Shown here: positions 1 through 23,717 of the stretch, one piece after another | How positions within the stretch are numbered: position 1 is the first letter of the stretch | Layout of the letters: each line of letters opens with the position of its first letter | Source: an uncultured Gammaproteobacteria bacterium | GTDB taxonomy: Bacteria > Patescibacteriota > Patescibacteriia > Magasanikbacterales > JBBTQS01 | DNA: 39,448 nt | Assembly: GCA_964554065.1 (NCBI GenBank) | Contig: CAZKMQ010000002.1 | Location: 1-39,448, forward strand | Direction of reading: 5' to 3' | Translations under genes and position numbers: made by a program | The notes under the pieces: generated by a model | Seen by the model: the letters and a program-made list of their open reading frames with translations, nothing else | Databases searched by the model: none | What the model was told of the DNA's origin: nothing

Positions 1-52
1 AATATAGGTTTATGATTATATTAGGTTGCTCTAATAACATATGGGGGTGTAA

Positions 53-1360
53 ATGAAGAGAATTCCAAATATTCCTTGGCTTGATCGAGAGGAGGTCAAG
101 GATATCGTGCTCAAGCTTTTTGATTTGGGTTTGATCAAGGTTGATGATACGTTCAGCCTGCCGCTCAAAAGTGGCGGGAAAACTGACGTTTACATTAACT
201 TGCGTGATGCGCGGAGTAAACCAGAAGCATTGCGGTATTTGGCCGGTGTGTTTACCAGGCCGCTTCGCATTGCAGACTGCAAGCGTTTCGTTGAGGTGCC
301 GGATGCGATTTCGTGCCTTGCGCCTTTGGTCGCAGAGCAGTTGAGCATTCCTTATGTCACAGTACGCAAACAGGGCAAAAGTGGCCATGCGACAAGTGGC
401 AAATTCATTGGTGAGCTTAATGCCAGTGAGCCTGTGTGCATTATCGACGATGTAATCACAGATGGCGCTTCCAAAAAACCTGCGATACATGTAATGCGTG
501 ATCGTGGAGTAAATGTGGATGCTGTCGTGGTGCTTGTAGATCGCATACGTGCCTGGGATCAGGATGGTTTTTCTCACATTCTTCAAGTGCCGGTTTGGGC
601 TGGCATGACGCTGCATGATGTGCGACGAGTGTTGATCGAAGAAGGTCGGATGCGTCGGTGCGATCCTGCGATGGAGAAGAAGAATCCAATTATACTTGCG
701 CTGGACATTCGCGATCCGCAACAGCTCCTGCCGATCCTGGAGCGCTTGCGCCCGCTTGGGTGTACGCTCAAGGTGAATGACTTGGTGTTTGAGGAGGGTT
801 TCAAACACTTGCTTCCGGAATTGCAAGTGTATGGTCGTGTCATGGTGGACATAAAGGGCCACGATATTCCTAACACTCTTAACAACATCAGCATGCGTTT
901 GTCCAAGTACGAGCCGTGGGCAGTCACGGTTCATGCGTCTGGTGGCACAAAGATGGTGGAACAGATTGCTGGCATTACTAGCCAGATCGAAACCAAACTG
1001 CTTGCCATTACTGTACTCACTTCACTCAAGGATGAGTGCAGGGACATTTATGGCAAGGAAGCGAGCGCTAAAGTCATGGATTTGGCTAGGATTGCCATGG
1101 ATGCAGGAGCCAATGGTCTGGTGTGCAGCGCACATGAGGTCAAAGCATTGCGTGAGGTTTATCCAGAAGCATTGCTAGTTACTCCTGGTCTGCGAAGTCC
1201 TGGAGCTGATGCTGGTGATCAAGAGCGTGTTGCAACACCTGCCGTGGCTAAGAAGAACGGGGCAGATGGGCTGGTCATGGGTCGTCAGATCATGAACAGT
1301 ATGGATCCAGTAGCTGAAGTGAAGCGCGTGCTCACTAAGGAGTTGGGGATCGTGCTGTAA
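53..1360 (+). CDS. pyrEF: Bifunctional orotate phosphoribosyltransferase / OMP decarboxylase (PyrE-PyrF fusion)
   Basis: The N-terminal half has the PRPP-binding motif VCIIDDVITDGASK. The C-terminal half has OMP decarboxylase motifs (ILALDI, DIKGHDIPNT, GLVMGRQI). It is a single uninterrupted 435-aa ORF with a GGGGG SD-like run upstream. Confidence 0.85.
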   Translation: MKRIPNIPWLDREEVKDIVLKLFDLGLIKVDDTFSLPLKSGGKTDVYINLRDARSKPEALRYLAGVFTRPLRIADCKRFVEVPDAISCLAPLVAEQLSIPYVTVRKQGKSGHATSGKFIGELNASEPVCIIDDVITDGASKKPAIHVMRDRGVNVDAVVVLVDRIRAWDQDGFSHILQVPVWAGMTLHDVRRVLIEEGRMRRCDPAMEKKNPIILALDIRDPQQLLPILERLRPLGCTLKVNDLVFEEGFKHLLPELQVYGRVMVDIKGHDIPNTLNNISMRLSKYEPWAVTVHASGGTKMVEQIAGITSQIETKLLAITVLTSLKDECRDIYGKEASAKVMDLARIAMDAGANGLVCSAHEVKALREVYPEALLVTPGLRSPGADAGDQERVATPAVAKKNGADGLVMGRQIMNSMDPVAEVKRVLTKELGIVL

Positions 1361-1380
1361 CAGCAAAAACAGCGAAAAAA

Positions 1381-1415
1381 GGCTGTATAGTTAACTCTAT
1401 ACGGTCTTTTTGTTT
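1381..1415 (+). terminator. Intrinsic terminator after pyrEF
   Basis: A 10-bp stem (ggctgtatag / ctatacggtc, two G-U pairs) with loop ttaact is followed by tttttgttt. Confidence 0.75.
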
Positions 1416-1453
1416 AAATTTAGCAAAATAATAGAGAAACGTCCACCCAGGAC

Positions 1454-1482
1454 TTGACAAAATTATCAAAATATGCTATAGT
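1454..1482 (+). promoter_or_regulatory. Sigma70-like promoter (TTGACA-N17-TATAGT)
   Basis: The -35 hexamer is a perfect consensus at 1454-1459, with 17-nt spacing to TATAGT at 1477-1482. A second candidate (TTGTAT-N18-TATACA, 1567-1596) lies just upstream of the RNA element. Confidence 0.6.
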
Positions 1483-1611
1483 GGCCAGTTCACAGTACTA
1501 CTGTGCGCATTACAACGAGGAGAGAGTGGATAAAACAGGTGGATTTTTCTGCCTGCAAAAGATGGTTTGTATTCTCTTTTCGTAAAGATCTATACAAGCC
1601 ATTTTTTGTTT

Positions 1612-1718
1612 CAGAGTGAGTAACGTGTAGAGGAGGGAACGCTTCAATTTGGACTGGCTTAAAATATATATTCGGCCTTAAGTCCATTGTGCAGCTCTTC
1701 TGCACTTTACTCGCTCTG
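1612..1718 (+). ncRNA. Structured 5' leader element, copy 1 (long irregular hairpin, unassigned family)
   Basis: P1 is about 24 bp (1612-1635 with 1695-1718; one mismatch, three G-U pairs). P2 is GGACU/AGUCC (1651-1655 with 1681-1685). P3 is GGC(U)/(G)GCC, capped by a 14-nt loop UAAAAUAUAUAUUC. It is homologous to 2578-2677 with compensatory changes. Confidence 0.65.
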
Positions 1719-1774
1719 ATTGTCCGAACGTTTCGGCATGAAGATTGAGAATACGCTCTTCCTTGGAGGGAAAA

Positions 1775-2440
1775 ATGAGCGCAGGATTCGATAGTAACTT
1801 CGCCCAGAACAGCAACCCCAAGACCAGCCGTGAGGACGGCGAGAAAGATGTCTTCGTCCCGGCCACTGTGGTCAAGGTAGAGGATGTGAAGCTGCGCCAG
1901 GCGCGGCTGGAGCGGATCGCAAGCGATCCGCGGTTCAAGAAGGAGTCGAAGTCGCAGAAAGAGCGCTTCACGCCGGAGTTCGAGATGTACATCTGCACCC
2001 GAGTTGGGTGCGGAACCAGCATGTCTCCGGCACAGGCGCTAGTGCCAGACCGGAGTGTATTCAGCAAGGAGTTGGGCAAGGAGAAGTTCTTGACCGATGA
2101 CCTGAAGGTGCTCGCGGTCTGCGGTCGCAGATGCGTCGAGCTCAAGTACGGACCAGATTGCAGGTCTTACCGCCACAACCTGGTCTATCGGCAGCTGCTC
2201 TCTGATCAGCAGCGCGACTACGAGCGCAAGCAGCGCAGAGCGCAGTATTTCCCGCGGTCGGAGCGTAAGGCTCCGGGCGCAAAGACCAAGGGCGCCTTCG
2301 GCAACGTCCAGAACTCCGGCTCGGATTCGTACCGGGCCAAGAAGGCGGCGAAGCGGGCTGCCTCCAAGGAGCTTCGCGACGGCATGAAGGGCAGCGAGAA
2401 CGGTCAGACCGGTGCTGACCGCGCTGGCAAGAAGAAGTAG
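1775..2440 (+). CDS. GC-rich hypothetical protein with a Cys4 zinc-ribbon-like module and a Lys/Arg-rich C-terminal tail (paralog A)
   Basis: The ATG at 1775 follows GGAGGG by 4 nt; the ORF-track start at 1745 is a TTG with no SD. Motifs are C-x4-C (CTRVGC) and, about 35 aa later, LTDDLKVLAVCGRRC. The tail is basic (KKAAKRAASK...GKKK). A sampled line is 62% GC, and long spurious antisense ORFs fit the high GC. Confidence 0.7.
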   Translation: MSAGFDSNFAQNSNPKTSREDGEKDVFVPATVVKVEDVKLRQARLERIASDPRFKKESKSQKERFTPEFEMYICTRVGCGTSMSPAQALVPDRSVFSKELGKEKFLTDDLKVLAVCGRRCVELKYGPDCRSYRHNLVYRQLLSDQQRDYERKQRRAQYFPRSERKAPGAKTKGAFGNVQNSGSDSYRAKKAAKRAASKELRDGMKGSENGQTGADRAGKKK

Positions 2441-2537
2441 CCGACTTCTTCGCCAAGTCCTAGCCCACGCTAGGCAAACCAACGGAACGGGGTGATGATG
2501 CAACGCGTGTCACCCCAATCCAACTGATCAGTTCACT

Positions 2538-2566
2538 TTGTGGAATGATCTGAGGATTTTTACAAT
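2538..2566 (+). promoter_or_regulatory. Promoter candidate (TTGTGG-N17-TACAAT)
   Basis: The -10 TACAAT at 2561-2566 has 17-nt spacing to a weak -35. The predicted start, around 2573, lies immediately 5' of leader copy 2. Confidence 0.5.
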
Positions 2567-2577
2567 AAATACTCTAT

Positions 2578-2677
2578 CAGAGTGAGGAATGTGAGAGGAG
2601 GGCACACATAGAGATAGGCTTAAAATCTAATTTCGGCCTTTAAATCTCGACCAACTTCTCCCACATTCCTCACTCTG
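2578..2677 (+). ncRNA. Structured 5' leader element, copy 2
   Basis: P1 is 23 bp (2578-2600 with 2655-2677; one mismatch, one G-U pair). P2 is GAGAU/AUCUC (2611-2615 with 2644-2648). P3 is AGGC(U)/(G)GCCU, capped by a 14-nt loop UAAAAUCUAAUUUC. Blocks shared with copy 1 are CAGAGUGAG, AGAGGAGGG, GGCUUAAAAU, UUCGGCCUU and CUCUGAUU. Confidence 0.65.
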
Positions 2678-2747
2678 ATTCGTTATGTGTTTACGCACGT
2701 GATGAAAAAGAGTAAAATCTAGAACAGTTCCTAGGAGGGATGTTCAC

Positions 2748-4076
2748 ATGTCTGACTCGAAAGAGAAAGACCGTCGGCCTCGTCGTCCTCGACAAGGTCA
2801 GAGTAGCGGTGGTAACATCGCATCGTCAATTGCAGGCTGGCAGTTCCAAGGGACTGATCCAGCAGGAGTGAACCTGCTCGAGCAGGTTCGCGAGAATCTT
2901 CGTGCGCGGGAGGAGTCTGAATCGGAGGAGCAGGAAAATCGTGCTCCGTTCAAGGTGCAGCCGCCGGAGATGGTGGAGTGCACAATGGATGATTGCGACA
3001 AGGAAGGTCCTTTTCTTTTCCGCAAGGCCTCCACTCCGAGAACTGACAAGATCGCCTTGTTCCTTCACAAGGACGAAAGCGATCTGACCGCTGATGACAT
3101 CCTTACCGTGGCTACGTGTCGTCGGTGTGGTCGTCGTTCCAAGAACACGTCGCCCATCGTGACCGTCTGGCGCATTGTCGTCGGGTGTATCGGTGACGAG
3201 GAGGGTTTCAGGCCTCGGCGGGGGAAGGATTCGCAAGTCAAGACTCGCAAGCCGAGTCGGGCAGAGCAAATCCGTCAGCAGAAGCTGGAAGAAGGCGGAA
3301 AGGAATGTGGTCAGAAAGGGTGTCAGTTCGTACTGATGCCTGATCAGGTTCGGTTCCCCAGTGATCTTGGAGAGCTGGCATCAGTTGCTGGCGTCGAGGT
3401 TGGGGAGTTGGGCTGCGATCACGTCTTTGACTTGATTCGGTGCAAGAAGCACTTCAAGCCGACCTGGGGTATGGACTTTCGCAGCAAAAGCGTGACTGAT
3501 TACCAGAGTACCAAGGATGGTATTCTGGCGGCACGTGAGTTGGTTGAGATCGAGGCTCAGGAAGAGCTCGCGGAGTGTGAGCAGCAGGCCAAGGCCAAGG
3601 AGGCTCGGCTTGCCAAGAAGAAGGAGCTTCGTGAGGCTCGACTTGCTAGCAAAGCGTCTGCTCCTAAGAAGGCAGATGCTGATGCTCATCGCAAGACTAA
3701 GGGGCGTCGTGCTTCCACCAAGAAGCGCAGTTCTCGTCCGCGATCTTCTGGTGGTGACAAGGGGGGTGGCTCTCGTCACTCTTCCGGAAAGGCGCATCAA
3801 GCACCTAGCTTGAGCTCATCGCAGCGAAGTGATGACGAGCGACAGCCGAGAATCTGGATCACGAAGGCTTCGCAGCCTGTGGTCACGAAGATCTCAGGTC
3901 TTTCGAAGATCGCCATGGAGATCAGCTCCATGAGTCTGGATACTGATGACCTGAGTCAGGAAAGCGCAGATGCGCTGGCTTGGGCAAAGATGTTCGTCTT
4001 GGCGGAGAAGTTCGGAAGCAGCACGAAGAAGCTGCATCCGCCACAGATGGTCGTCGAAATGCTCACCGTCAACTAA
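2748..4076 (+). CDS. GC-rich hypothetical protein with two Cys-rich zinc-ribbon-like modules, a charged coiled-coil and a basic low-complexity region (paralog B)
   Basis: AGGAGGG lies 8 nt upstream of the ATG. Module 1 is CTMDDC...LTADDILTVATCRRC, which aligns with paralog A. Module 2 is CGQKGC...CDHVFDLIRCKKH. The middle is K/R/E-rich (AKAKEARLAKKKELREARL, KTKGRRASTKKRSSRPRSSGG). Confidence 0.7.
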   Translation: MSDSKEKDRRPRRPRQGQSSGGNIASSIAGWQFQGTDPAGVNLLEQVRENLRAREESESEEQENRAPFKVQPPEMVECTMDDCDKEGPFLFRKASTPRTDKIALFLHKDESDLTADDILTVATCRRCGRRSKNTSPIVTVWRIVVGCIGDEEGFRPRRGKDSQVKTRKPSRAEQIRQQKLEEGGKECGQKGCQFVLMPDQVRFPSDLGELASVAGVEVGELGCDHVFDLIRCKKHFKPTWGMDFRSKSVTDYQSTKDGILAARELVEIEAQEELAECEQQAKAKEARLAKKKELREARLASKASAPKKADADAHRKTKGRRASTKKRSSRPRSSGGDKGGGSRHSSGKAHQAPSLSSSQRSDDERQPRIWITKASQPVVTKISGLSKIAMEISSMSLDTDDLSQESADALAWAKMFVLAEKFGSSTKKLHPPQMVVEMLTVN

Positions 4077-4079
4077 ATT

Positions 4080-4650
4080 CCTCACTAACGTGAGGTCCTT
4101 ACATCATGTTCTGTGGTGTAAGGGGATGGGGTGGCTTAGTTAACAGCTAAGTCACTCCCGCCCAATTCTATTCATCGCTCAATTTTCAAACTTTTCACAG
4201 AGCGGTGATTAGATAGGGTGTCATCAGATGCTCTACTGTCTATACTTTTGACAAAGGGCTTACCAGCCTGGTTTTACAAAGGGTGCGTACCGGAAAAATC
4301 TTTCAGTACATATGACAGACATGACGTTAAGTAAAAGACGTCACTGGATCGTTCTTGCAGCCGACAGCATTGCAATGTCAGTCTTATAAAAGCCACGAAG
4401 TGGTCAGCTGGCGGTGTGAATGGAAGATTGTGAAAACCTCATTTTAAGAGGGGATTAACAATCGGAAACCGGCGCCTGTATGCAGGCAGCAATGTCAAGA
4501 CGAAAAAACAAACAGGGGAGGATCGCTGGATTGCTCTGCATTCCAAACACTCCCTATCCCACAGCAAGACAAGCGCACATTATATCCCCACTCTCTCTTG
4601 TCTTGCTATGGGAGACAATAAATCGGTCGTATGGCCGGTTTTTTGTTTGA
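4080..4650 (+). other. ORF-free, hairpin-rich region ending in an intrinsic terminator (candidate ncRNA or long structured 3' UTR)
   Basis: The six-frame track has no ORF of 60 aa or more between 4086 and 4722. Hairpins seen by eye include 4080-4095, a 12-bp stem around 4127-4157, a 15-bp stem ccacagcaagacaag/cttgtcttgctatgg(g) around 4559-4612, and a terminator at 4622-4648. Confidence 0.35.
4622..4648 (+). terminator. Intrinsic terminator
   Basis: The stem is atcggtc/ggccggt (7 bp, two G-U pairs) with loop gtat, followed by ttttttgttt. Confidence 0.6.
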
Positions 4651-4663
4651 AAAAAATTTGCTA

Positions 4664-4692
4664 TTGCATAAAAACCCATATATTTGTATACT
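4664..4692 (+). promoter_or_regulatory. Promoter (TTGCAT-N17-TATACT) for the HU gene
   Basis: Hexamers and spacing were read directly. The site lies 38 nt upstream of the ATG at 4730. Confidence 0.55.
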
Positions 4693-4729
4693 TTTGTCAC
4701 ATTGTTAATAACCCTTAAGCTATCATACT

Positions 4730-5014
4730 ATGGCAAAAGGCCTTTCAAAGTCACAGCTCATGACAGAGCTTAGTGAAAAGTGGGGTGTTTCAAAGAAAGA
4801 AGCAACCGAAATGTTTGAAGGATTTATCGATTTGGTGTTTGACCACGTTAAATCTGATGGGGAGCTTATGCTTCCAGGAATGGGTAAGCTAGTAAAAGCG
4901 CATCGTAAAGCGCGCATGGGACGCAATCCAGCAACTGGTGAGGAAATTCACATTGCTGCAAAAACCGTTGTAAAGTTCCGTGTTTCAAAATCTGCTAAAG
5001 ACTCAATTCTGTAA
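4730..5014 (+). CDS. hup: HU/IHF-family DNA-binding protein
   Basis: It is 94 aa with family signatures: KSQLMTELSEK..., MLPGMGKLVKAHRKARMGRNPATGEEIHIAAKTVVKFRVSK (the beta-arm RNP motif). Confidence 0.9.
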   Translation: MAKGLSKSQLMTELSEKWGVSKKEATEMFEGFIDLVFDHVKSDGELMLPGMGKLVKAHRKARMGRNPATGEEIHIAAKTVVKFRVSKSAKDSIL

Positions 5015-5035
5015 ATTTAGACGTTTATTGAAAAA

Positions 5036-5059
5036 CCTGCCTGAAAAGGTGGGTTTTTT
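5036..5059 (+). terminator. Intrinsic terminator after hup
   Basis: The stem is cctgcc/ggtggg with loop tgaaaa, followed by a T6 run. Confidence 0.55.
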
Positions 5060-5071
5060 GGTATATTTAGC

Positions 5072-5100
5072 TTGACAAAGTCGATTATTTGTGTTATTCT
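5072..5100 (+). promoter_or_regulatory. Promoter (TTGACA-N17-TATTCT)
   Basis: The -35 is a perfect consensus with 17-nt spacing. Confidence 0.55.
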
Positions 5101-5219
5101 AGGAAGTACTTTGTCGACCATGTATGTACAGGAAACACGGCATGTTGCGCGTGTTTAGGTTTGAAAGCTGTTGTACAAGATACAGGTTACATCTTCGCCG
5201 TAAGGCAAGGGAGTTGAAA

Positions 5220-6311
5220 ATGACAAAGTTGATTGAGTTCCTGAAAAAATTAGGTGAGGCAATCCTCATCTTGGTTTGCTCCTTTAAGTGGGGCTTCTTG
5301 CCACAGAAGTTCTCTCCAGAGTTCGACTGGAGAAACAAACCAAAAACTCGAGTATCTGAAGGTGTTGTGGTCTGGTACTCGTGTGCATTGAGTATTGTCT
5401 TCAGTTGGTACATTGCTGAAGACGCGCTTCTTGTGTGGTTTAACCCATGGATCTACTTGATCCTTCCATTTGCTGTACTTCTTCTTGGTTTGCCACTGCT
5501 AATGCTCATTCAAGATAATAGAAGCGGGTATGCTCATCGCTCTTGGTCGTCTACGTTCAAGCTGAACGCTAGTGCAGTTTTCTTTGGGGCAGTCCTGTTT
5601 GTTGGGTCTGCGCTCATAGCAATTGCGATGAGTTCTAGCTATGCATGGTATCAGTTACTAGTTGTGGTACTTTGTGCTCAGCTAGTCGCTGTCACACTTT
5701 TTTTCATTCTGAATCCAGATACCAGCATGAATGAGAGAAAGAGAGCAGGAGGATTCCTAGTTGCTGCGCTTGTGTCATGCTCTATGACGCTTTTCATGTC
5801 GTTCTACTACTTTCTCATGCTTGTTAGTGTGGTGGTAGTGGGTGCGGCGTGGGTGCATCGTGGTCGTGATCTCTGGAAGGACATCCGAATAGAGGTACAT
5901 CGTAGTATCTGGGGGAAGCTCGAAGCCGAGGCGAACATTCTTCATTTAGAGCTTAAGCTCACGCAGAAGGCTGCAAAGATAGCTGAGGCTGATCTTGCTT
6001 TGCAGGTTGAAGTTGCTAATAAAGCAATCGAAACAGTGGATCTAATGCGAAAAGGAGAAGCGGAATTGTTGCGTAAGATTAATGATCTGACGCTGAAGCT
6101 CACTGATATCTGTGAGTTCAAGTCCACGTTGGCTCTGATCATCACCAGAATTCGCAACGACCGGCGTCGCGGAGACAAGCATCTTGGTGAAGCGCGACGT
6201 GATCTAGAACGATTCTTCGCAGTTCTGGTTCCTGACGAGAATGAGAGGCTTGCGCAGTACTACCGGGCAGAACACCCAGACGAGGAAAGGGCCAAGCAGG
6301 CTGTCTCGTGA
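5220..6311 (+). CDS. Multi-pass membrane protein with a C-terminal cytoplasmic coiled-coil; function unknown
   Basis: The start is set at MTKLIEF, with GGGAG 7 nt upstream; the track start at 5124 has no SD. There are several hydrophobic helices followed by heptad-like segments (LELKLTQKAAKIAEADLALQVEVANKAIE...). Confidence 0.6.
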   Translation: MTKLIEFLKKLGEAILILVCSFKWGFLPQKFSPEFDWRNKPKTRVSEGVVVWYSCALSIVFSWYIAEDALLVWFNPWIYLILPFAVLLLGLPLLMLIQDNRSGYAHRSWSSTFKLNASAVFFGAVLFVGSALIAIAMSSSYAWYQLLVVVLCAQLVAVTLFFILNPDTSMNERKRAGGFLVAALVSCSMTLFMSFYYFLMLVSVVVVGAAWVHRGRDLWKDIRIEVHRSIWGKLEAEANILHLELKLTQKAAKIAEADLALQVEVANKAIETVDLMRKGEAELLRKINDLTLKLTDICEFKSTLALIITRIRNDRRRGDKHLGEARRDLERFFAVLVPDENERLAQYYRAEHPDEERAKQAVS

Positions 6312-6369
6312 ATAGTTTAAAAAAACAACTAGAGTGTGATTGTTGAGTAACACTCAGCGATTGAACTCT

Positions 6370-6407
6370 CCCCGCATACGCGACGCGTATGCGGGGTAGT
6401 TTTTTTA
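6370..6407. terminator. Bidirectional intrinsic terminator between convergent genes
   Basis: The stem is a 13-bp perfect palindrome, ccccgcatacgcg a cgcgtatgcgggg, followed by T7. On the other strand its flank is AGAG rather than a T-run, so minus-strand function is doubtful. Confidence 0.8.
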
Positions 6408-6806
6408 TTTAGACTTTAAAAGTTGGCTATACTTTGCGCGTTGGCTATACACCATGTACATGATTAAGCCAAAGGCAATGTATGCAGGTGTTCCTCTCAA
6501 AGTTATGTATTGTAGATCGGTAAAAACATGGAATAGTAAGAAGTTGAATGTAATAGGAACCATGAGCAGTGCTGCCAAGGCAACGTAGCGGTTTGTAAGG
6601 AATGCAATGCCACAAATCAATGAGATGATGCCAATAGTAGGGAATATGTATCCTGTTGATACGATTGCTTGAATAAGTGGCCAGCCTTTATCAGTGAATA
6701 GTTCTGGTGAATATGCAGCCGTTGGCAAAAAACCGAACTTTGAACCGGCGAGAAAGAGCAGGAAAAGTCCTGTGATTATGCGAATTGTGTGGTGAAGATA
6801 TTTCAT
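6405..6806 (-). CDS. DoxX-like small integral membrane protein
   Basis: It is 133 aa with four hydrophobic helices. The opening (LLFLAGSKFGFLP...) resembles the DoxX family, but the call rests on resemblance only. Confidence 0.5.
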   Translation of the reverse strand: MKYLHHTIRIITGLFLLFLAGSKFGFLPTAAYSPELFTDKGWPLIQAIVSTGYIFPTIGIISLICGIAFLTNRYVALAALLMVPITFNFLLFHVFTDLQYITLRGTPAYIAFGLIMYMVYSQRAKYSQLLKSK

Positions 6807-6811
6807 ATAGT

Positions 6812-6840
6812 TTATAAAAACCCCGGGCGCGAGCCCGGGG
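6812..6840 (-). terminator. Intrinsic terminator after the minus-strand HU gene
   Basis: The GC-rich stem ccccgggc/gcccgggg is followed on the minus strand by tttttataaa. Confidence 0.75.
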
Positions 6841-6849
6841 TTGATTCAT

Positions 6850-7215
6850 TTATACTGTAGGTGCTGGTGGCTCTGGGGCAGGTGTAGGTTCAGGAGCGGG
6901 CTCAGGCGCTGGCTCTGGCTCACTTGGCCCGCCTTGGGATTTCTTTAGTGCTTCTTTAAGGTTCTTTCCAGCTTTGAATTTTGCTACTTTGGTTGGGTGG
7001 ATTGTGATTTTCTCTGATGTGTTCTGTGGATTCACACCAATGCGCCCTGCGCGCACGCGTGATGAGAATGTACCAAATCCTGCAAGTACTACTTCGCCAT
7101 CCTTAGCCAATTGGCTGGTGGCTATATCCATGAAAGCCTGCACCATATCTTCTGCTTCTTTTTTTGTGACATTTGCCCGTGCTGAAATTGCTTCAGCGAG
7201 TTCTGATTTGTTCAT
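6850..7215 (-). CDS. hup: HU-family DNA-binding protein with a Pro/Glu/Ala-rich C-terminal extension
   Basis: The HU core is MNKSELAEAISAR...FGTFSSRVRAGRIGVNPQNTSEKITIHPTKVAKFKAGK, followed by the tail GGPSEPEPAPEPAPEPTPAPEPPAPTV. AGAGGGG is the SD upstream. Confidence 0.9.
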   Translation of the reverse strand: MNKSELAEAISARANVTKKEAEDMVQAFMDIATSQLAKDGEVVLAGFGTFSSRVRAGRIGVNPQNTSEKITIHPTKVAKFKAGKNLKEALKKSQGGPSEPEPAPEPAPEPTPAPEPPAPTV

Positions 7216-7296
7216 AATGATACCCCTCTTTTTGAGGCTAAGATTTACATCCCTAATATATCATAAATTAGGGAAATAATCATGGTGTGGAAAACT

Positions 7297-8811
7297 TTAC
7301 CGTGCGTATTCCATAACTCGAGTCTCTCGAATCACGATCACTTTGATCTCACCAGGGTGCTTAAGCTCTGCTTCAATCTCGCGTGCAATATCTTTTGCCA
7401 TGTTGTATGCGCCATAGTCATCAAGCTCTTTTGGGTTCACAAATACACGGATTTCACGTCCTGCTTGAATAGCATAAGCCTTTTCAACTCCTTTTTGTCG
7501 CAAGGCAATGTTTTCCAAATCTTCAAGACGTTGCACATATTGTTCGTATGAATCGCGGCGTGCTCCAGGGCGAGCGCCTGATAGTGCATCAGCAACTTTG
7601 GAGATTGATCCTAGTAATGTCTTAGGCTTGTCTTCATGGTGTGCAATGCAACAGTATGCGATCTCTTCTGGGTAGTTGAACTTTTTCATAATAGTGTACC
7701 CAATTTCTGGGTGTCCGCCTTGTGTCTCGTGATCTACAGCCTTTCCAATATCGTGGAAAAGTCCAGCAATCTTAGCAGCTTGTGGGTCAGCGCCAAGTTC
7801 TTTAGCTAGCATTGTACACATATATGCTACTTCTTTGGCGTGGTTCAGCTGGTTTTGGCCGTAACTTGTTCGGTATTTCAAGCGTCCTAGGATTGAAACC
7901 AACTTAGGGTCTGTTCCTGTAATACCAAGTTCGTATAATGTTTCTTCACCAGCTTTTTTAATGTCCAAAGCCAGTTCTTTCTTTGCTTCTTCTACGAAAT
8001 TCTCAATGCGAGCTGGGTGAATTCGTCCGTCTTTAATTAGTTTTTCAAGTGCGATGCGTGCTACCTGACGACGAATTGGCGCGTAGCTGGCAATAGTAAC
8101 CACGCCAGGAGTTTCATCGATAATAAGTTCACAGCCAGTAAGACGCTCAATGGTTCGGATATTGCGTCCTTCTTTCCCAATAATGCGCCCTTTCAAATCT
8201 TCACTTTCAAGCTTAACCGTTGATGTGGCGTTTTCAGAAATACAAGATGCAGCATAGCGTTCCATTACTGTGCTCAAAATTCGGTTGGCTTTGCGGTCGT
8301 ACTCTTCTGAGTTAGCGTGATCAAGCTTCATAATGCGCATAGCCAAGTCTTCGCTTGCGCTTTTTTCCACTTGATTAAACAGTTCTTCCTTAGCTTCTTC
8401 AACTGAAAGTCGAGCAACTCCTTCTAGTTTTTTAACTTCTTGCTGACGGATTTGTTCTACTTCACCAGCTTTATTTTTTACCATTTCAATTTGTTCCTTG
8501 AGTTTTTCTTGGCGATCTTGGAACTCCATGAGCTTATTGTCAAACATGCTTTCACGCTTTTCAATACGTGATTGCATCTGCTTGAGTTCGCCGCGGCGGT
8601 TATTCTCTTCTTTTTTTGCTTCATCCAAAACTTTCATAGCCTTATCCTTAGCTTCCAGCATAATTTGCTGTTGCTTAGTCTTGGCTTGAGTGATCATTTT
8701 GTCAGCCTTGGCCTCCATTGAATTGGCATTAGCTGCGGCAATTTGCTTACGCAAAAGATACCCAACTAAAAGACCAATCAACGCGGCAATTATAATGATA
8801 AATTGTTGCAT
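7297..8811 (-). CDS. rny: Ribonuclease Y
   Basis: The architecture is an N-terminal TM helix, a coiled-coil, a KH domain (GRIIGKEGRNIRTIERLTG) and an HD domain (HDIGKAVDHE...HH). It is collinear with Bacillus Rny and ends in the conserved VIRETRVMEYAR. The start is set at MQQFIII; the alternative start at 8838 adds 9 aa. Confidence 0.9.
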   Translation of the reverse strand: MQQFIIIIAALIGLLVGYLLRKQIAAANANSMEAKADKMITQAKTKQQQIMLEAKDKAMKVLDEAKKEENNRRGELKQMQSRIEKRESMFDNKLMEFQDRQEKLKEQIEMVKNKAGEVEQIRQQEVKKLEGVARLSVEEAKEELFNQVEKSASEDLAMRIMKLDHANSEEYDRKANRILSTVMERYAASCISENATSTVKLESEDLKGRIIGKEGRNIRTIERLTGCELIIDETPGVVTIASYAPIRRQVARIALEKLIKDGRIHPARIENFVEEAKKELALDIKKAGEETLYELGITGTDPKLVSILGRLKYRTSYGQNQLNHAKEVAYMCTMLAKELGADPQAAKIAGLFHDIGKAVDHETQGGHPEIGYTIMKKFNYPEEIAYCCIAHHEDKPKTLLGSISKVADALSGARPGARRDSYEQYVQRLEDLENIALRQKGVEKAYAIQAGREIRVFVNPKELDDYGAYNMAKDIAREIEAELKHPGEIKVIVIRETRVMEYAR

Positions 8812-9024
8812 ACGCGTGTGCGTATTTCTAAGATGCAAATATGCGGACCAATGGTCCGTGCGTGATCTAGTGAGTTTTTCCCCGAGAAATCAGCATAATG
8901 GGGAACAAAGGAGTTAAAGTCAAACTATCTCTACACATCGATTCTTCCGCAAACAACAGCACTCAGAAATACCAGTTATGTTTATAAGAATATAGTATGC
9001 TCAGCATACCGTATTTGGGTGAGG

Positions 9025-9053
9025 TTGACAAGAGTATCCACATATGGTAGGCT
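9025..9053 (+). promoter_or_regulatory. Promoter candidate (TTGACA-N17-TAGGCT)
   Basis: The -35 is perfect and the -10 is weak. An alternative -10, TACAAT, lies at about 9075-9080. Confidence 0.4.
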
Positions 9054-9120
9054 TTTCGTCTGCGCTGTTATGCGGTACAATAGTGCAGCCTGAGAACTCA
9101 AAAACACATAGGAGGGGTTA

Positions 9121-9456
9121 TTGAGTAATCAAAGTAGTAATTCTGGACACGCGATGTGTGTCAAATGCAAGCGGGAATATCCCATTCCTGCGTGTGTTAC
9201 CTCGTCCATTGATTCCATGGAGCGCGCCAAGTCTCGCAGGGGAGAGCTCGGTGCACTGACTATGGAGGATGTGGTCAAGTATCATGTTCATTGTGGTAGA
9301 GATTCACGGCATGTTGTCGGAGAGATCCACCAGCTTCGCACAGTAATGAGTCAGATAAGCCGTATTTCGCGGCGCAAGTCTGGCGTTACCACGCGCAAAG
9401 CATCCACTGCAAGGACTCGCGGTGGCCGAAAAGATCGTACGCGTACATACGCGTAG
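9121..9456 (+). CDS. GC-rich small Cys-rich protein with an Arg-rich tail (paralog C of the 1775/2748 family)
   Basis: A TTG start follows AGGAGGGG by 5 nt; an in-frame ATG lies at 9154. The motifs are CVKCKREYPIPAC...LTMEDVVKYHVHCGRDSRH, which align with LTADDILTVATCRRCGRR and LTDDLKVLAVCGRRC. The tail is RRKSGVTTRKASTARTRGGRKDRTRT. A sampled line is 58% GC. Confidence 0.6.
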   Translation: MSNQSSNSGHAMCVKCKREYPIPACVTSSIDSMERAKSRRGELGALTMEDVVKYHVHCGRDSRHVVGEIHQLRTVMSQISRISRRKSGVTTRKASTARTRGGRKDRTRTYA

Positions 9457-9477
9457 AGTACAAACAATCCAATAAGG

Positions 9478-9530
9478 CTCTGAGAATAACGCGCGTCCTA
9501 TACCGGGACCATTTCTCAGAGCTTTTTCTT
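9478..9530 (+). terminator. Intrinsic terminator (long hairpin)
   Basis: The 10-bp stem gctctgagaa/ttctcagagc encloses a sub-hairpin and is followed by tttttcttttt. Confidence 0.65.
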
Positions 9531-9531
9531 T

Positions 9532-10194
9532 TTAGAAAGTTTTTGTTTGCCAGTTTTTTGAATCAAGTTCAGCAATTTCATGCGCATCTTCAAGTGAGTA
9601 TTCTCCAATTGATGTGCGTGTTAATTTTTCTGCAAACGCTCCACATCCCAAAGCTTGGCCAATATAATGAACCAGAGTGCGGATGTATGTTCCTGTTGAA
9701 CACTTTACTTCTAGTGTTGCGTGGCATGGATCAATTTTTAAGATGTTTATTGAGTGGATGTTTATGGTGGATGGTTTGCGTTTTATTTCTTTGCCTTGGC
9801 GGGCAAGTTCATACAGTTTTTTGCCTTTGACTTTTTTGGCGGAAAACATTGGCGGGGTTTGCTTAATTTGGCCGATGAACTGTGGAATGGTTTTTTCTAA
9901 AAGCTCATGAGTAATTGGTGTGTTCAGCGGGGTGGGGGAAACCACGCCATCAATATCTTGGGTATCTGAAGTTGCGCCAAAATGAGCAGTGACGTGATAG
10001 GTTTTGTCTAGTATTTTGAATTCATCCAAGCGGCGTGTGGATTCGCGGCTGATCCCAACAATAAGTAAACCTGATGCAAACGGATCAAGTGTGCCGGCAT
10101 GGCCGATGCGGCGCTCGCCGGTGATTGACCGGAGTTTGGCGACAATATCGTGAGATGTCCAGGAAATCGGCTTGTTTATGAGGATAAATGGCAT
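9532..10194 (-). CDS. truB: tRNA pseudouridine-55 synthase
   Basis: TruB motifs are present: GHAGTLDPFASGLL (catalytic Asp), PPMFSAKKVKGKKLYELAR and CSTGTYIRTL. Confidence 0.9.
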   Translation of the reverse strand: MPFILINKPISWTSHDIVAKLRSITGERRIGHAGTLDPFASGLLIVGISRESTRRLDEFKILDKTYHVTAHFGATSDTQDIDGVVSPTPLNTPITHELLEKTIPQFIGQIKQTPPMFSAKKVKGKKLYELARQGKEIKRKPSTINIHSINILKIDPCHATLEVKCSTGTYIRTLVHYIGQALGCGAFAEKLTRTSIGEYSLEDAHEIAELDSKNWQTKTF

Positions 10195-10277
10195 GGGGTT
10201 GGTAGCGACGAAATTGAGGAAAGTGGGAATGTATTTCCAATTTCCGAGATAAGGAAGTTCAAGCGAGCAAAGCGAGC

Positions 10278-10306
10278 TTGACAGATTTAATGATTTCTGC
10301 TATTAT
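10278..10306 (+). promoter_or_regulatory. Promoter (TTGACA-N17-TATTAT)
   Basis: The -35 is perfect with 17-nt spacing. An adjacent imperfect palindrome, tcaagcgagcaaagcgagcttga, overlaps the -35. Confidence 0.6.
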
Positions 10307-10397
10307 CTCCTGTCCGCTCATTTAATACAAATGGCTTCAGATGCTTGGGATAACCTAGGCATCTGCAGCTACAGGAGCTGCGAAAAGCGAGGTAGTC

Positions 10398-10724
10398 ATG
10401 GAACAGACTGCAAAAAGCAAACTCATGATGGATCTGCTGGTTCTGTCTGGGGATTTTCCCGAGACCATGAGTTTGATCAATGGAAGCCGAGAGCAAGGAG
10501 CGGAAAGGTTGCTCTACGCACTTGGCTTTGTCTACTGCGATGCGCTGGAAAATGGACTGTTGTCCAAGCGAATCAAAAAGGCAATTATCGCAACTGGAGA
10601 TTTTCTGCTTGAGCCTGGTTGTTGGGAAAACCGCCAGAAGATGCATTGCTTGGCAGGACTGCTCAAAGACGCGGCAATGTCGTTGATGACGCAGGGGCAG
10701 AGGGATAAGTTGCGAGCGGTGTAG
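10398..10724 (+). CDS. Hypothetical small helical protein (orphan)
   Basis: GAGGTAG lies upstream of the ATG, and the gene has plus-strand promoter and terminator signals. The translation is protein-like, whereas the longer antisense ORF (10287-10790) is rich in C, H, Q, R and S and lacks signals. Confidence 0.55.
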   Translation: MEQTAKSKLMMDLLVLSGDFPETMSLINGSREQGAERLLYALGFVYCDALENGLLSKRIKKAIIATGDFLLEPGCWENRQKMHCLAGLLKDAAMSLMTQGQRDKLRAV

Positions 10725-10791
10725 TTCATACAGTGTGTTGTGATTAATAGCTCGCTGATGCACATACCCATTTGTTATAATCACGCACAAT

Positions 10792-10828
10792 CCACCACTT
10801 ACTTAACGTGAGTGGTGGCTCTTTTTTT
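10792..10828 (+). terminator. Intrinsic terminator
   Basis: The 8-bp stem ccaccact/agtggtgg is followed by ctcttttttt. Confidence 0.75.
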
Positions 10829-10837
10829 ACTCTAATC

Positions 10838-10865
10838 TTGCTTTTTTTAGCGATTTTGCTATACT
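10838..10865 (+). promoter_or_regulatory. Promoter (TTGCTT-N16-TATACT) directly upstream of infB
   Basis: The -10 ends 9 nt before the infB ATG, which implies a leaderless or near-leaderless mRNA. Confidence 0.45.
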
Positions 10866-10874
10866 CTCACCACT

Positions 10875-12893
10875 ATGAACGTCACTGAATTAGCCCGCAG
10901 AATGCGAATGAACACACACACGCTCCTGGAAATCCTCCCGGAGTTTGGTTTTGATATTGGTAAAAAGGCTATTAAGGTGGATGATCGTGTGGCGCAGAAG
11001 ATTATGCGGCAAAGTCGTCGTATTAAGGAGTCTTTGGAAAAACGCAAGAAAGTTGAAGCTGATAAGCAGAAGCAGCTTGAGAAGGAAATGCGTCAGGAGC
11101 GCGGTGAATCAGTGTCTATTCCTGATGTAATTACGGTTCGGGATTTTGCGGATCGTCTTGGGTTGCCGGTGACTGCGGTTATTACTGAGTTGATGAAAAA
11201 CGGGATTTTGGCAAATTTGAATCAAAATATTGATCGGGATACGGCTACGGTCCTTGCTGAAGACTTAGGATTTACTGTGGCTACAGATGAAGGTGAGGAT
11301 GAATCTGGAGAAAGCACTGAAGTTGTTGATGCATTGGAAACTGCGCTTGAAAGTCAGAATAAAGACAAGATGCAATCACGTCCTCCAGTTGTTGTGGTGA
11401 TGGGGCATGTTGATCATGGTAAAACACGGTTGCTTGATAGTGTGCGCGAGACCAATGTGATTGATACTGAGTCTGGAGGAATTACGCAGCATATTGGTGC
11501 GTATCAGGTTTCAAAACAAGACCAATTGATGACTTTTATTGATACTCCAGGACATGAGGCGTTCACAGTGATGCGAAGTCGTGGTGCTCGGATTGCAGAC
11601 ATTGCTATTCTGGTGGTTGCCGCAGACGACGGCGTGATGCCACAAACTGTTGAGGCGATTAATATTATTCAGGCGGCGAAGTTGCCAATGATTGTAGCGA
11701 TTAATAAGATTGATAAGCCAGAAGCTAATGTTGAGAAAGTAAAGACAGAATTATCGCAGCGCAACATTGTTCCAGAAGAGTGGGGAGGTAAAGTTCCAAT
11801 GGTTTCTATTTCAGCTAAGGATGGAACGAATATCCCTGACCTTTTGGATACTATTTTGCTAGTGGCGGAAATGGAAACAGAAAATATTAAGGCGGTTCCA
11901 GGACGTGCTGCTGTGGGAACAGTGATTGAATCGCACGTGGATAAAGGTGAGGGTCCAGTTGCAACTATTTTAGTTCAAGCTGGAACATTGAATCGTGGTG
12001 ATGCACTTGTTGTGAACAATCAAATTTATGGAACAGTACGAGCGATGCGCGATTATACTGGCGCTGATGTTTCTGCGGCAGAACCAAGTACACCGGTGAA
12101 AATTCTTGGGTTTAAGTCTGCGCCGCAGGTCGGGGACATTCTTGATGTGTCGCAAAGAAAGAGCGCAACTAAAGTTAAAAAGACTCGCGGCAGTGGTGCA
12201 AAACCTCCAGTAACTCAACAAGCAGCTGCAGCTGAAAATGAAGATGATGGAAAGAAGAAGGTTTTGAATATTGTTATTCGTGCTGATGTACTTGGTTCAT
12301 TGGAAGCGATCACTAACTCTATTGAAAAGTTTCAACACGAAGAAGTTGCTGTTAAGGTTGTATCTAAAGGCCTTGGAAATATTACAGAAACAGACGTTGA
12401 TAAAGCGCAAGGAAGTGGAGCTCAGATCTTTGCATTCCATGTGCAGGTGCCAGCAACAGCAAAAGAGCTTGCCGGAACCAAGGAAGTTAAAGTGAAGAAG
12501 TTCGAAGTGATTTATGCGCTGCTTGAATATATTGAGGATGAGTTGCAAAAGCTCTTGCCATCTGAGAAGATTGTAACTGAGCATGGGACAGCGCAGGTGT
12601 TGGCGATTTTCCGTACAGATAAGTCAGGTATGACAGTTGGTTGTAAGATTACATCTGGGAAATTTGTTAAGGGGGCTAAAATTCGTGTCACTCGTGGCGA
12701 ATATCAAGAGGGAATTGGTGTGGCGGAAAGTTTGCAAATTGGAACATCAAAAGAATCTGAGGTGCACGAGGGAACTGAATTTGGTATGCGCTTTGATGGG
12801 AAGACAAAGGTACATGTTGATGATATACTGGAGGCCTATACTGAAGAAATTAAGGAGCGTAAGATTGCATTCAAGCATCTTGCGGATAAATAA
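10875..12893 (+). CDS. infB: Translation initiation factor IF-2
   Basis: GTPase motifs are present: [13 protein letters not shown] and NKID. The C-terminal IF2 domains are typical. Confidence 0.95.
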
Positions 12894-12901
12894 AAACATA
12901 T

Positions 12902-13219
12902 ATGGATTTAACAGATGCAAACTTTCAAAAAGAAGTTCTTGAGTCAGACAAGCCGGTGCTTGTGGATTTCTGGGCGCCGTGGTGTGGTCCATGTCAGATT
13001 ATTAAGCCGATTATGGAAGATTTGATTGCAGAGTATGCGGACAAGGACATTGTGATCGGAAAGATGAATGTGGATGAGAACGGCGAGACTGCTAGTAAGT
13101 TCGGAATTATGAGTTTGCCTTCTTTCAAAGTGTTCAAGGGCGGCAAGATTGTCAATGAGGCAGTTGGTGGAATTGGTCGTGATGGTGTTGTGAAATTGAT
13201 TGAAAGCGCTTTGGAATAA
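12902..13219 (+). CDS. trxA: Thioredoxin
   Basis: It is 105 aa with the active site WAPWCGPC. Confidence 0.95.
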   Translation: MDLTDANFQKEVLESDKPVLVDFWAPWCGPCQIIKPIMEDLIAEYADKDIVIGKMNVDENGETASKFGIMSLPSFKVFKGGKIVNEAVGGIGRDGVVKLIESALE

Positions 13220-13240
13220 TTTTATTTGTGGTGGATTTTA

Positions 13241-13272
13241 AAAGCCCTCGACTAATGGTCGGGGCTTTTTGG
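13241..13272. terminator. Bidirectional intrinsic terminator
   Basis: The stem is agccc(t)cgac/gtcggggct, flanked by aaaa on one side and ttttt on the other, between convergent genes. Confidence 0.75.
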
Positions 13273-13293
13273 TTAGTGGTTTTTTTGTTTGGA

Positions 13294-13743
13294 CTAGTTG
13301 TCCACCCAACGGCATGGTGGGAATCCGGTTCTTGGGATTTTCACCCGGTCGATTCGCATGGCTAATGAGCGAATGTTATGTTCCGGGTTGCTGTGAATGT
13401 GCCGCGCTAGAGCCACTTCAACATCGCAGCGCATGGAGATGATCTCTATCTCGTAGTCATAGTTGCGGCCATGTGTGAAGTATGGAGAAATTTCCCAGAG
13501 AGCTATGTTGCAGTTGTCTACAACGATACACTCGCGGCCTTGCTTGACAGCATGAACGAACTTACTCCAGCAGTACATGTGTGCTTGAGTGAGTTCCTCT
13601 GGGTTGAAACGGAATTCTCCAGAGATCGAGTCGATGAAGTACCTGTCGGCACTGCATACTGTTGCGTCTTTGAAGTGTTTTTCTTGGTAGTGAGTTTTCC
13701 CAGAGCCGGGAATACCACGCATGATCTTGATTTGCTTGGCCAT
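13294..13743 (-). CDS. P-loop NTPase / nucleotide-kinase-like protein
   Basis: The start is set at MAKQIKIM, preceded by GGAGGAC. A Walker A motif (GIPGSGKTH) is present. The small size of about 149 aa resembles AAA_33 / polynucleotide-kinase-like proteins, but the family assignment is tentative. Confidence 0.55.
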   Translation of the reverse strand: MAKQIKIMRGIPGSGKTHYQEKHFKDATVCSADRYFIDSISGEFRFNPEELTQAHMYCWSKFVHAVKQGRECIVVDNCNIALWEISPYFTHGRNYDYEIEIISMRCDVEVALARHIHSNPEHNIRSLAMRIDRVKIPRTGFPPCRWVDN

Positions 13744-13800
13744 TTTGTCCTCCAGTGCCCTAGGTAAAACAAGAAAATATAATAGCATGAAATTGGGATT

Positions 13801-13846
13801 TTGTCAAGCTATTGTACTTGACAAACAATCAAAAATTTGCTAGTGT
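13801..13846 (+). promoter_or_regulatory. Promoter (TTGACA-N17-TAGTGT) embedded in an 8-bp perfect inverted repeat
   Basis: The inverted repeat is ttgtcaag (13801-13808) and cttgacaa (13817-13824), and it overlaps the -35 at 13818-13823. Confidence 0.45.
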
Positions 13847-13999
13847 TATCTAGCTAATCCCAAGCGGGAGAAGCTACCATAATTCTGCGTAAAGTTCGTG
13901 GTCCGCTGTGAAACCGGCACGAGGTAGAGGCATGGGAAACATGTTGCGCTAAACCCGCAATGTAGTGAGAGTTTTTTACAATAGATAGAGAGGTGAAAC

Positions 14000-15379: not shown

Positions 15380-15402
15380 TAGTCTAGCATCGTAACTAAC
15401 AA

Positions 15403-15440
15403 GGCCCAAGCAGCAACAACTGCTTGGGCCTTTACTTTTG
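15403..15440 (+). terminator. Intrinsic terminator
   Basis: The 11-bp perfect stem ggcccaagcag/ctgcttgggcc is followed by tttacttttg. Confidence 0.8.
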
Positions 15441-15468
15441 TCTGGTTTTTCGCCACAATGGAGTCACT

Positions 15469-23569: not shown

Positions 23570-23590
23570 ATTTGACCGATCTGATACTAT
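23562..23590 (+). promoter_or_regulatory. Promoter (TTGACT-N17-TACTAT) for rplJL
   Basis: Hexamers and spacing were read directly. The site overlaps the end of pyrH. Confidence 0.5.
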
Positions 23591-23595
23591 ATTTC

Positions 23596-23696
23596 CATCG
23601 CCACAGACAGCAGGCAATTAATAAGACCTGCCGAGGTATAAGCTCCCGCTTTAATATATTGGGATAGGTCGGCTTTATCGATAACTGTGGCAGATG
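23596..23696 (+). promoter_or_regulatory. Candidate L10(L12) ribosomal-protein leader structure
   Basis: A long-range closing stem pairs catc-g-ccacag (23596-23606) with ctgtgg-c-agatg (23685-23696). An internal hairpin is gcagg...cctgc. The position directly 5' of rplJ matches the known autoregulatory leader location. Confidence 0.35.
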
Positions 23697-23717
23697 TGTC
23701 ATAGTTTTTTGTTTTTT

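Follow-up and report, generated by a model that had tools for sequence, protein, structure and literature searches.

Two GC-rich orphan genes in tandem, each behind a copy of a structured leader, in a Patescibacteria contig

What are two GC-rich open reading frames (ORFs) doing side by side among the housekeeping genes of an AT-rich bacterial genome? The frames in question, ORF A and ORF B, lie on contig CAZKMQ010000002.1 (assembly GCA_964554065.1), of which we analysed 39,448 nucleotides (nt), hereafter the window. The source is an uncultured bacterium of the Patescibacteria (Candidate Phyla Radiation, CPR); the window has a GC content of ~42%, and GC at third codon positions (GC3) is ~0.37 in the host genes. 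An earlier reading of the DNA, here called the original prediction, took A and B for tandem paralogues that define an uncharacterised protein family, with a shared four-cysteine (Cys4) module and basic tails. We put at roughly 55% the probability that A and B are real genes forming a tandem, anciently duplicated, fast-evolving and probably foreign orphan pair that carries a regulatory RNA leader. The leaders, on which the original prediction touched only in passing, are the best-supported new feature of the locus. The principal elements are as follows.

1572-1771, + strand: leader A, ~200 nt homologous to leader B, with a hairpin, a small downstream hairpin and a conserved UUCCUNGGAGGGA
1611-1719, + strand: leader hairpin A, minimum free energy -51.7 kcal/mol, z -5.8
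1775-2440, + strand: ORF A, 221 amino acids (aa), isoelectric point (pI) 9.9, GC 61%, GC3 0.80
2532-2740, + strand: leader B, the intercistronic region and homologue of leader A
2576-2679, + strand: leader hairpin B, minimum free energy -49.9 kcal/mol, z -7.05, with 25-nt arms that are 92% complementary
2748-4076, + strand: ORF B, 442 aa, pI 9.2, GC 56%, GC3 0.61

The two leaders score 95 in a local alignment, against 21.7 +/- 3.0 for shuffled sequences, and are 77% identical when aligned with MAFFT. Each folds into a two-tiered hairpin of ~105 nt, in which an outer stem of ~24 base pairs (bp) is followed by an internal loop, an inner stem and an apex. The outer stem is interrupted by one mismatch in each copy, dividing it into 13 + 11 bp in A and 18 + 6 bp in B, and its 5′ arm contains AGAGGAGGG unchanged in both. 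The apex, GGCUUAAAAU..UUCGGCCUU, is likewise invariant between the copies; an apical 24-mer occurs twice in the window, where 0.00 occurrences are expected. We compared 35 pairs between the hairpins. Of these, 24 are identical and 5, of which four lie in the inner stem, differ in both bases yet still pair; 3 differ in a single base and still pair, 1 is a paired indel and 2 are paired in one copy only. The leader structure is conserved through compensatory change between the two sequences compared, which is the generic mark of a cis-regulatory leader. Moreover, the + strand has six G-U pairs whose - strand counterparts would be A-C mismatches, and therefore an RNA read in the direction of the genes is favoured over a DNA palindrome.

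Neither leader matches a family in Rfam 15. Between 1360 and 4730 the search returned just chance matches to microRNA-like hairpins, far below threshold, and the only Rfam match in the window is the L10 leader at 23583-23720. A covariance model of the leaders (R1) found no third copy in the window or in the loci of five relatives. Pattern matches in IMG/VR (10), JGI metagenomes (17) and GTDB genomes (12), and two more from a second pattern, have dissimilar flanks and were all discarded as chance. A conserved upstream peptide was also rejected, because hairpins A and B present the apical block in different reading frames.

The signals around the genes are consistent with their being transcribed together.

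1376-1411: terminator of the pyrE-pyrF gene upstream
1454-1482, + strand: near-consensus sigma-70-type promoter just after that terminator, TTGACA-17-TATAGT, with TG before the -10 element
1766-1771, + strand: Shine-Dalgarno (SD) sequence GGAGGG of ORF A, 3 nt ahead of the ATG (1775)
2690-2718, + strand: weak promoter-like site, TTTACG-17-TAAAAT (9/12), between hairpin B and its SD
2734-2739, + strand: SD sequence GGAGGG of ORF B, 8 nt ahead of the ATG
4077-4651, + strand: gene-free structured region, folding z -7.26, ending in a canonical terminator (4620-4641) and a T-run

To judge from its promoter, the A-B transcript probably starts near 1490. There is no terminator between A and B, and the weak site at 2690-2718 is not conserved in leader A. 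A single transcription unit would thus run from the promoter at 1454-1482 to a terminator at ~4645, with one copy of the structured leader ahead of each gene. Some 650 nt downstream of ORF B (4077-4730) contain no called gene in an otherwise compact genome. They include a promoter-like site at 4218-4246, match nothing in Rfam and hold no third copy of either leader or gene. The structured part, 4077-4651, is probably the 3′ end or long 3′ untranslated region of the A-B transcript, or else a separate small RNA. On either side of the block, at 1407 and 4640, stands TTTTTGTTTRAA as a direct repeat; we considered a target-site duplication, but two terminator T-tracts are the likelier explanation.

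Both ORFs were found exactly where they had been predicted, and their GC-richness is confirmed (A 61%, B 56%, against ~38-51% in the other genes). GC content at the first, second and third codon positions is 0.58/0.45/0.80 in A and 0.60/0.47/0.61 in B, uniformly along both frames. By this three-base signature A and B are real, or recently real, coding frames. The possibility that the high-GC antisense ORFs are the true genes does not hold up, as these display the mirror-image 'shadow' pattern (0.77/0.47/0.59 in the ORF at 2039-2503 on the - strand, for example) and match no family, whilst the + frames fit. We also compared the folding of the coding regions with that of synonymous-codon permutations, obtaining z -2.9 for ORF A and -6.3 for ORF B against -3.6 to -4.0 for control genes; selection for RNA structure within the coding regions is not clearly above the controls and was not retained.

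In their codon usage A and B depart from 19 host genes by a far greater share of G- or C-ending codons. The respective fractions in A, B and host are 0.92, 0.88 and 0.47 for AAG, 1.00, 0.73 and 0.41 for GAG, 1.00, 0.79 and 0.42 for CAG, 1.00, 0.77 and 0.25 for TTC, and 0.50, 0.46 and 0.05 for GTC. GC3 is low (0.32-0.36) in the window's ribosomal-protein and HU genes, and therefore selection for high expression does not explain the bias. The initiation signals also differ. The strong SD and sigma-70-type promoter noted in the original prediction are both present, but they are not like those elsewhere in the window, which is mostly SD-less and where several genes look leaderless. Among ~34 candidate genes, A and B are the only ones with a full GGAGGG at the right distance, and just three or four of the remainder have other SD-like motifs, in a rough survey for which start codons were taken mechanically. 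No other gene in the window combines a full GGAGGG, a structured leader of ~290 nt and foreign codon usage. Since codon usage, initiation signal and leader length all set A and B apart from their host, a foreign ancestry is indicated, and the pair probably came from a virus, a mobile element or another organism.

As for the rest of the window, -10-like hexamers lie 5-11 nt before the ATG at 10875 (IF-2), 18437, 20505 and 22826, and TATAAT directly abuts the ATG at 36384; the hexamers across such starts are TATACT, TACAAT, TATATT and TATAAT. Because these hexamers sit 0-11 nt before several ATGs, they suggest that leaderless or SD-independent translation is widespread in this stretch of the host genome. 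GC3 tends to be higher in genes of the first 15 kb (1-15400) than in 15400-39448 (0.25-0.45), examples being pyrE-pyrF (0.52), 5124-6311 (0.50), 10287-10790 (0.50), 13294-13788 (0.57) and 14000-15379 (0.49), and the few SD-bearing genes of the window also lie there. Moreover, the strands are asymmetric: GC skew is positive in nearly all 500-nt bins, and all 14 occurrences of GGAGGG are on the + strand.

The proteins share a cysteine module, located as follows.

1994-2134, + strand: Cys4 module of ORF A, C74-x4-C79, then 36 aa, then C116-x3-C120, preceded by EM
2979-3128, + strand: Cys4 module B1 of ORF B, C78-x4-C83, then 40 aa, then C124-x2-C127, positionally equivalent to the module of A
3306-3452, + strand: possible degenerate module B2 of ORF B, C187-x4-C192, C223 and C232-x2-H235, not significant alone
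3513-3656, + strand: long charged helix of ORF B (residues 256-303), the sole segment modelled confidently by AlphaFold, which may be a coiled coil

The motif EM-x2-C-T-x3-C is exact in both proteins, starting at residue 70 in A and 74 in B. In shuffled sequences the pattern C-x2-4-C, 15-45 aa, C-x2-4-C arises in 0.25% of cases for A (p 0.0025) and 1.3% for B (p 0.013), and the alignment of the two modules has a Smith-Waterman shuffle p of ~0.009. The shared module is thus present and non-random, but looser than had been described: its second half (LT..DD..C..RRC) aligns only with two indels, and ORF B does not fit the proposed F-x-P-x2-EM start. The spacer given as ~35 aa measures 26-29 aa if counted from the first pair of cysteines up to LT, and 36-40 aa if counted from one pair to the other. 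Nor does a second, degenerate module in ORF B stand by itself, since residues 187-235 give p ~0.06 against A and 0.57 against B1. Overall similarity between the proteins is weak, with BLASTP finding one 16-residue match (E 0.19), and the coding parts show no similarity when compared as DNA. The view of A and B as tandem paralogues is plausible nonetheless, from the position of the Cys4 motif and the clearly homologous leaders, and not from overall protein similarity. We accept the shared module, and regard ancient paralogy as probable on this sequence evidence, because the Cys4 arrangement is non-random and lies at the same position in both proteins.

Basic tails had been proposed for both proteins. 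This is so for ORF A, which ends in a strongly basic tail (residues 136-221, pI 10.6, 27% Lys+Arg), but not for ORF B. There, an Arg-rich N-terminus is followed by two Cys clusters, the long helix, a basic stretch and a helical C-terminus; the basic Ser/Gly/Lys/Arg stretch is internal (about residues 300-365), and the last 77 residues are neutral and predicted to be helical. AlphaFold had been put forward as a check, and AlphaFold2 without an alignment yielded no usable model for either protein (mean predicted local distance difference test, pLDDT, 44.5 for A and 46.1 for B).

We searched widely for relatives of the pair. Scans of Pfam and NCBIfam with A and B returned no family at E <= 1, and the isolated Cys modules matched no Pfam family at E <= 10. 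No family was assigned from PHROGs or PADLOC, and no match was found in the PDB by single sequence or by profile. Phage genomes, plasmids and IMG/VR, searched with tblastn and by related locus, likewise contained no match, so that A and B match no phage or defence family covered by PHROGs, PADLOC, phage genomes and plasmids. The charged helix of ORF B gave a TolA-like low-complexity match and one to phrog_10024, of unknown function (E 0.0078); both are confined to that helix and no assignment was taken from them. A word-index search of 5.8 billion protein clusters retrieved only A and B themselves, the search with B being saturated by low-complexity words. An exhaustive phmmer search of ORF A against 1.84 billion representatives found no true relative, B being covered by the word index alone, and two other phmmer matches to ORF A were dismissed as tandem-repeat proteins whose scores sum weak repeated matches. 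No profile of a known zinc-ribbon or C4 family matches either protein, and CxxC knuckles around a short beta-hairpin spacer of ~10-25 aa occur neither in A (x4, 36 aa, x3) nor in B (x4, 40 aa, x2). The pair therefore deserves to be called uncharacterised, in that Pfam, NCBIfam, PHROGs, PADLOC and the PDB hold nothing like it even at E <= 1-10. It does not define a family: because homologue searches retrieve only the queries, what had been called one amounts to two tandem genes, weakly related to each other, of a single species that is seen in a few metagenomes. A-B is a species-restricted orphan pair, not a demonstrable new protein family.

The A-B locus is present, essentially identical, in a handful of metagenomes; the source samples are SUTE22-1 (SAMN10231899-901), SCRA20-1 (SAMN11854485) and JGI 3300009376 and 3300009106. 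Across more than 12 kb covered by contigs from different samples there are 4 single-nucleotide polymorphisms (SNPs), of which 3 fall in ORF B (2787, 2923 and 3149) and 1 in the last codon of ORF A (2435); none lies in over 10 kb of flanking genes. The variants of ORF B are P14S, a synonymous change at codon 134 and S59stop, the last in an SCRA20-1 contig, whilst that of ORF A, found in a short SUTE22-1 contig, is K221stop. Most contigs carry both ORFs intact, and the ORF A protein is identical in 8 contigs from several samples. The clustering of SNPs in A and B fits either rapid evolution or partial decay.

From these observations we propose the following working model, in which zinc binding, nucleic-acid binding, foreign origin and the role of the hairpin are properties that we infer from sequence. 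A and B would be translated into basic, largely disordered proteins with one Cys4 cluster each. The spacing of the cysteines makes a zinc-binding, ribbon- or knuckle-like module probable, and together with the charge of the proteins it points to nucleic-acid binding as their likeliest activity. The ~105-nt hairpin would act at the RNA level as a cis-regulatory element on the A-B mRNA, most plausibly as a site for a double-strand-specific RNase of the RNase III type, as a protein-binding site, or as both. It is a plausible substrate for such an enzyme because it is long and near-perfectly paired, and both copies offer at least ~20 bp of near-continuous double-stranded RNA, as RNase III substrates do; the rnc gene itself is not in the 39-kb window. 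A protein, possibly A or B itself, may plausibly bind the invariant apex, and the hairpin would govern how stable the mRNA is and how well it is translated from the strong SD downstream. Taken further, the hairpin, with its AGAGGAGGG arm and GGCUUAAAAU..UUCGGCCUU apex, might be an undescribed cis-regulatory RNA recognised by the Cys4/basic proteins that it precedes, making the locus a self-contained autoregulatory module imported into a mostly SD-less or leaderless host. This extension is drawn by analogy with lambda N-nut and ribosomal-protein leaders, and we think it quite unlikely.

Several points weigh against the model as a whole. The covariation evidence for the leader comes from two sequences only, and scans of IMG/VR, JGI metagenomes and GTDB genomes with leader patterns disclosed no further true copy. 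An anti-SD switch would have the 3′ arm, released by loss of the 5′ arm, capture the SD; in silico this works in leader B only. There, removing the 5′ arm lowers the probability that the SD is unpaired from 0.37 to 0.00, whereas in A it remains at 0.35. It is therefore not a conserved mechanism. The coding case for A and B is a sequence argument throughout, made on proteins for which the searches found no homologue. Neither Cys module has a fold in the AlphaFold models (pLDDT <50), and C-x4-C and C-x2/3-C knuckles with a spacer of 36-40 aa are not classical zinc-ribbon geometry. A high-GC donor should have left homologues in the databases, and none was found. Lastly, at least ORF B may be dispensable or decaying, because two of the 4 variants are stop codons (at codon 59 of B and codon 221 of A).

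The concentration of variants in A and B, stops included, is the main support for a different account, in which the A-B block is a decaying foreign remnant, a fragment of a prophage or mobile element whose ORFs are still open but unselected and whose hairpins are left over from the donor. The lack of homologues, the foreign look of both codon usage and translation signals, the mostly disordered proteins predicted, and the clustering of SNPs in the ORFs, with stops at codon 59 of B and the last codon of A, would all suit a remnant. We nevertheless consider it rather unlikely, as both ORFs are intact in most contigs with the ORF A protein unchanged in 8 of them, the promoter, both SDs and the terminator are all intact, and no integrase, transposase or other mobile-element gene lies nearby. 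Moreover, the leader structure has been kept by compensatory changes, which therefore imply long-term selection after the duplication. It is also improbable that A and B are very divergent members of a described zinc-ribbon or small-regulator family, such as the FmdB-type CxxC_CxxC_SSSS proteins or the DksA/TraR-type C4 fingers, now beyond the reach of sequence methods. A non-random Cys4 arrangement with low-complexity Ser/Gly/Lys tails is indeed what small zinc-ribbon regulators have. Against this, the isolated modules match no Pfam family at E <= 10, nothing emerges from NCBIfam or from the PDB by single sequence or profile, the knuckles (C-x4-C, C-x3-C) and the 36-40 aa spacer are different, and there is no usable structure model with which to compare folds.

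The hairpins could instead be DNA-level elements, whether a Correia-like miniature inverted-repeat transposable element (MITE), integron attC-like sites or invertible promoter switches. Each has long inverted repeats (in copy B, 25 nt at 92%) spaced ~54-60 nt apart, they occur twice before genes of foreign composition, and compensatory change would preserve a DNA palindrome too. Yet the homology extends to 200 nt, beyond the inverted repeat, with the same orientation and register to SD and ATG; neither the 39 kb nor any of the collections scanned yielded another copy, and the window has no recombinase or integrase gene. As several G-U pairs form on the + strand only, and the spacer, which lacks a convincing promoter, is shorter than a typical inverton would need, we regard this as very improbable. 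Hardly to be credited is the idea that the region is non-coding, a large GC-rich structured RNA in which the ORFs are accidental. Its raised GC within an AT-rich genome, the absence of homologous proteins and the negative folding z score of all 150-nt windows from 1351 to 4650 might be so read. The three-base periodicity (GC3 0.80 against GC2 0.45 in A) is a coding signature, however, and the SDs are perfect and correctly spaced from their ATGs. The coding parts are not clearly more structured than controls (z -2.9 and -6.3 against -3.6 to -4.0), and Rfam has no match. We retain the reading of A-B as a probably foreign pair of genes with a regulatory leader.

Upstream of the pair lies the following gene.

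53-1360, + strand: fused pyrE-pyrF, orotate phosphoribosyltransferase and orotidine monophosphate decarboxylase in one 435-aa protein

The same fusion is common across Patescibacteria: a search at E <= 1e-20 gave more than 1000 full-length homologues. Those that are named are labelled 'Patescibacteria group', 'Paceibacterota' or 'Minisyncoccia', the best being 55-57% identical. Gene order is not conserved in the pyrE-pyrF relatives (53-57% identical), and because of this there is no orthologous A-B locus among them for comparison. Around A and B lie typical housekeeping genes, including two HU genes and those for RNase Y, IF-2, leucyl-tRNA synthetase, ComEC and MreB, together with an rplJ/rplL region with its L10 leader, DUF4012 and glycosyltransferase genes. 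No integrase, transposase, recombinase or other mobile-element gene was found in the 39-kb window.

Some of these neighbours merit a record of their own. The 459-aa product of 14000-15379 (+ strand) matches in Pfam only the C-terminal domain of RNA polymerase alpha (residues 340-396); no alpha N-terminal domain was detected, the gene lies outside any ribosomal-protein operon, it has the SD GAGAGGTG and its GC3 is somewhat raised (0.49). Leucyl-tRNA synthetase (15424-18363, + strand) is long at 979 aa; an internal segment, residues 542-627, scores 24.8 bits (cut-off 21, E 2.6e-5) against PF10706, aminoglycoside 2''-adenylyltransferase. The ComEC 'Competence' and metallo-beta-lactamase domains are spread over two + strand ORFs, 18437-19735 and 19576-20499, which overlap by 160 nt in different frames and could represent a split gene, a frameshift or an assembly error. 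The second HU paralogue (6850-7215, - strand) has an HU-HIG match and a Pro/Glu/Ala-rich C-terminal tail, PEPAPEPAPEPTPAPEPPAP. No Pfam family was found for the products of 24765-27071 (- strand, 768 aa), 5124-6311 (+ strand, 395 aa), 10287-10790 (- strand, 167 aa) and 6405-6806 (- strand, 133 aa), of which the 395-aa protein has membrane helices and a charged, coiled-coil-like C-terminal half.

Orphan genes are very common in CPR genomes. Without relatives, and known from sequence alone, A-B is one more species-specific pair of hypothetical genes. Should A and B prove to be expressed and to bind both zinc and RNA, they would offer a compact and experimentally tractable case of how a CPR bacterium acquires and regulates orphan genes, and the leader would in that case add an RNA motif absent from Rfam. 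Moreover, genes that combine GC3-rich codons with a strong SD and a long structured leader, set among mostly SD-less or leaderless neighbours, inform on the diversity of translation initiation in Patescibacteria. The leader RNA is the part of the locus most worth experiment.

How, then, does the locus compare with known systems? It resembles zinc-ribbon, leader, RNase III and nucleoid-protein systems by functional analogy only. Several small zinc-ribbon regulators combine a Cys4 arrangement with low-complexity Ser/Gly/Lys tails. Like A and B, the FmdB-type CxxC_CxxC_SSSS proteins (PF09723/TIGR02605) have two Cys pairs and a probably disordered tail rich in Ser, Gly, Lys and Arg, and by analogy a regulatory or nucleic-acid-binding role may be presumed for both. 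However, no hidden Markov model match links them at any threshold; A and B have C-x4-C and C-x2/3-C in place of CxxC and a spacer of 36-40 aa in place of ~10-20, and are much longer (221 and 442 aa). FmdB-type membership was tested and abandoned. HU proteins with Lys/Ala/Pro tails, and the histone-H1-like Hc1, have strongly basic low-complexity tails, as does ORF A. The A-B pair adjoins two HU genes (4730-5014 and 6850-7215), an adjacency that may be coincidental; synteny is not conserved in the relatives. A and B have no HU or H1-like domain, and Cys4 modules are foreign to those proteins.

The leaders invite two further comparisons. Ribosomal-protein leaders, such as the L10 leader at 23583-23720, also place a structured 5′ leader directly before genes for small basic proteins, and their structure is likewise maintained by compensatory change. 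Those of A and B differ in belonging to no Rfam family, in preceding products that are not ribosomal proteins and in being known from two copies. Hairpins processed by RNase III, as in the lambda N leader, the T7 R sites and Correia elements, have nearly perfect stems of at least 20 bp with an internal loop and are repeated before successive genes of a single transcript, much as here. They have no sequence similarity to the hairpins of A and B. Unlike the Neisseria Correia elements, the A and B leaders are homologous over more than the inverted repeat, and the searches gave no dispersed copies; in the window, the relatives' loci and the collections, the two copies in the same register do not behave as MITEs, attC sites or invertons. 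The lambda hairpin precedes the gene for a small and disordered RNA-binding protein rich in Arg, which the Arg-rich N-terminus of ORF B may be said to recall.

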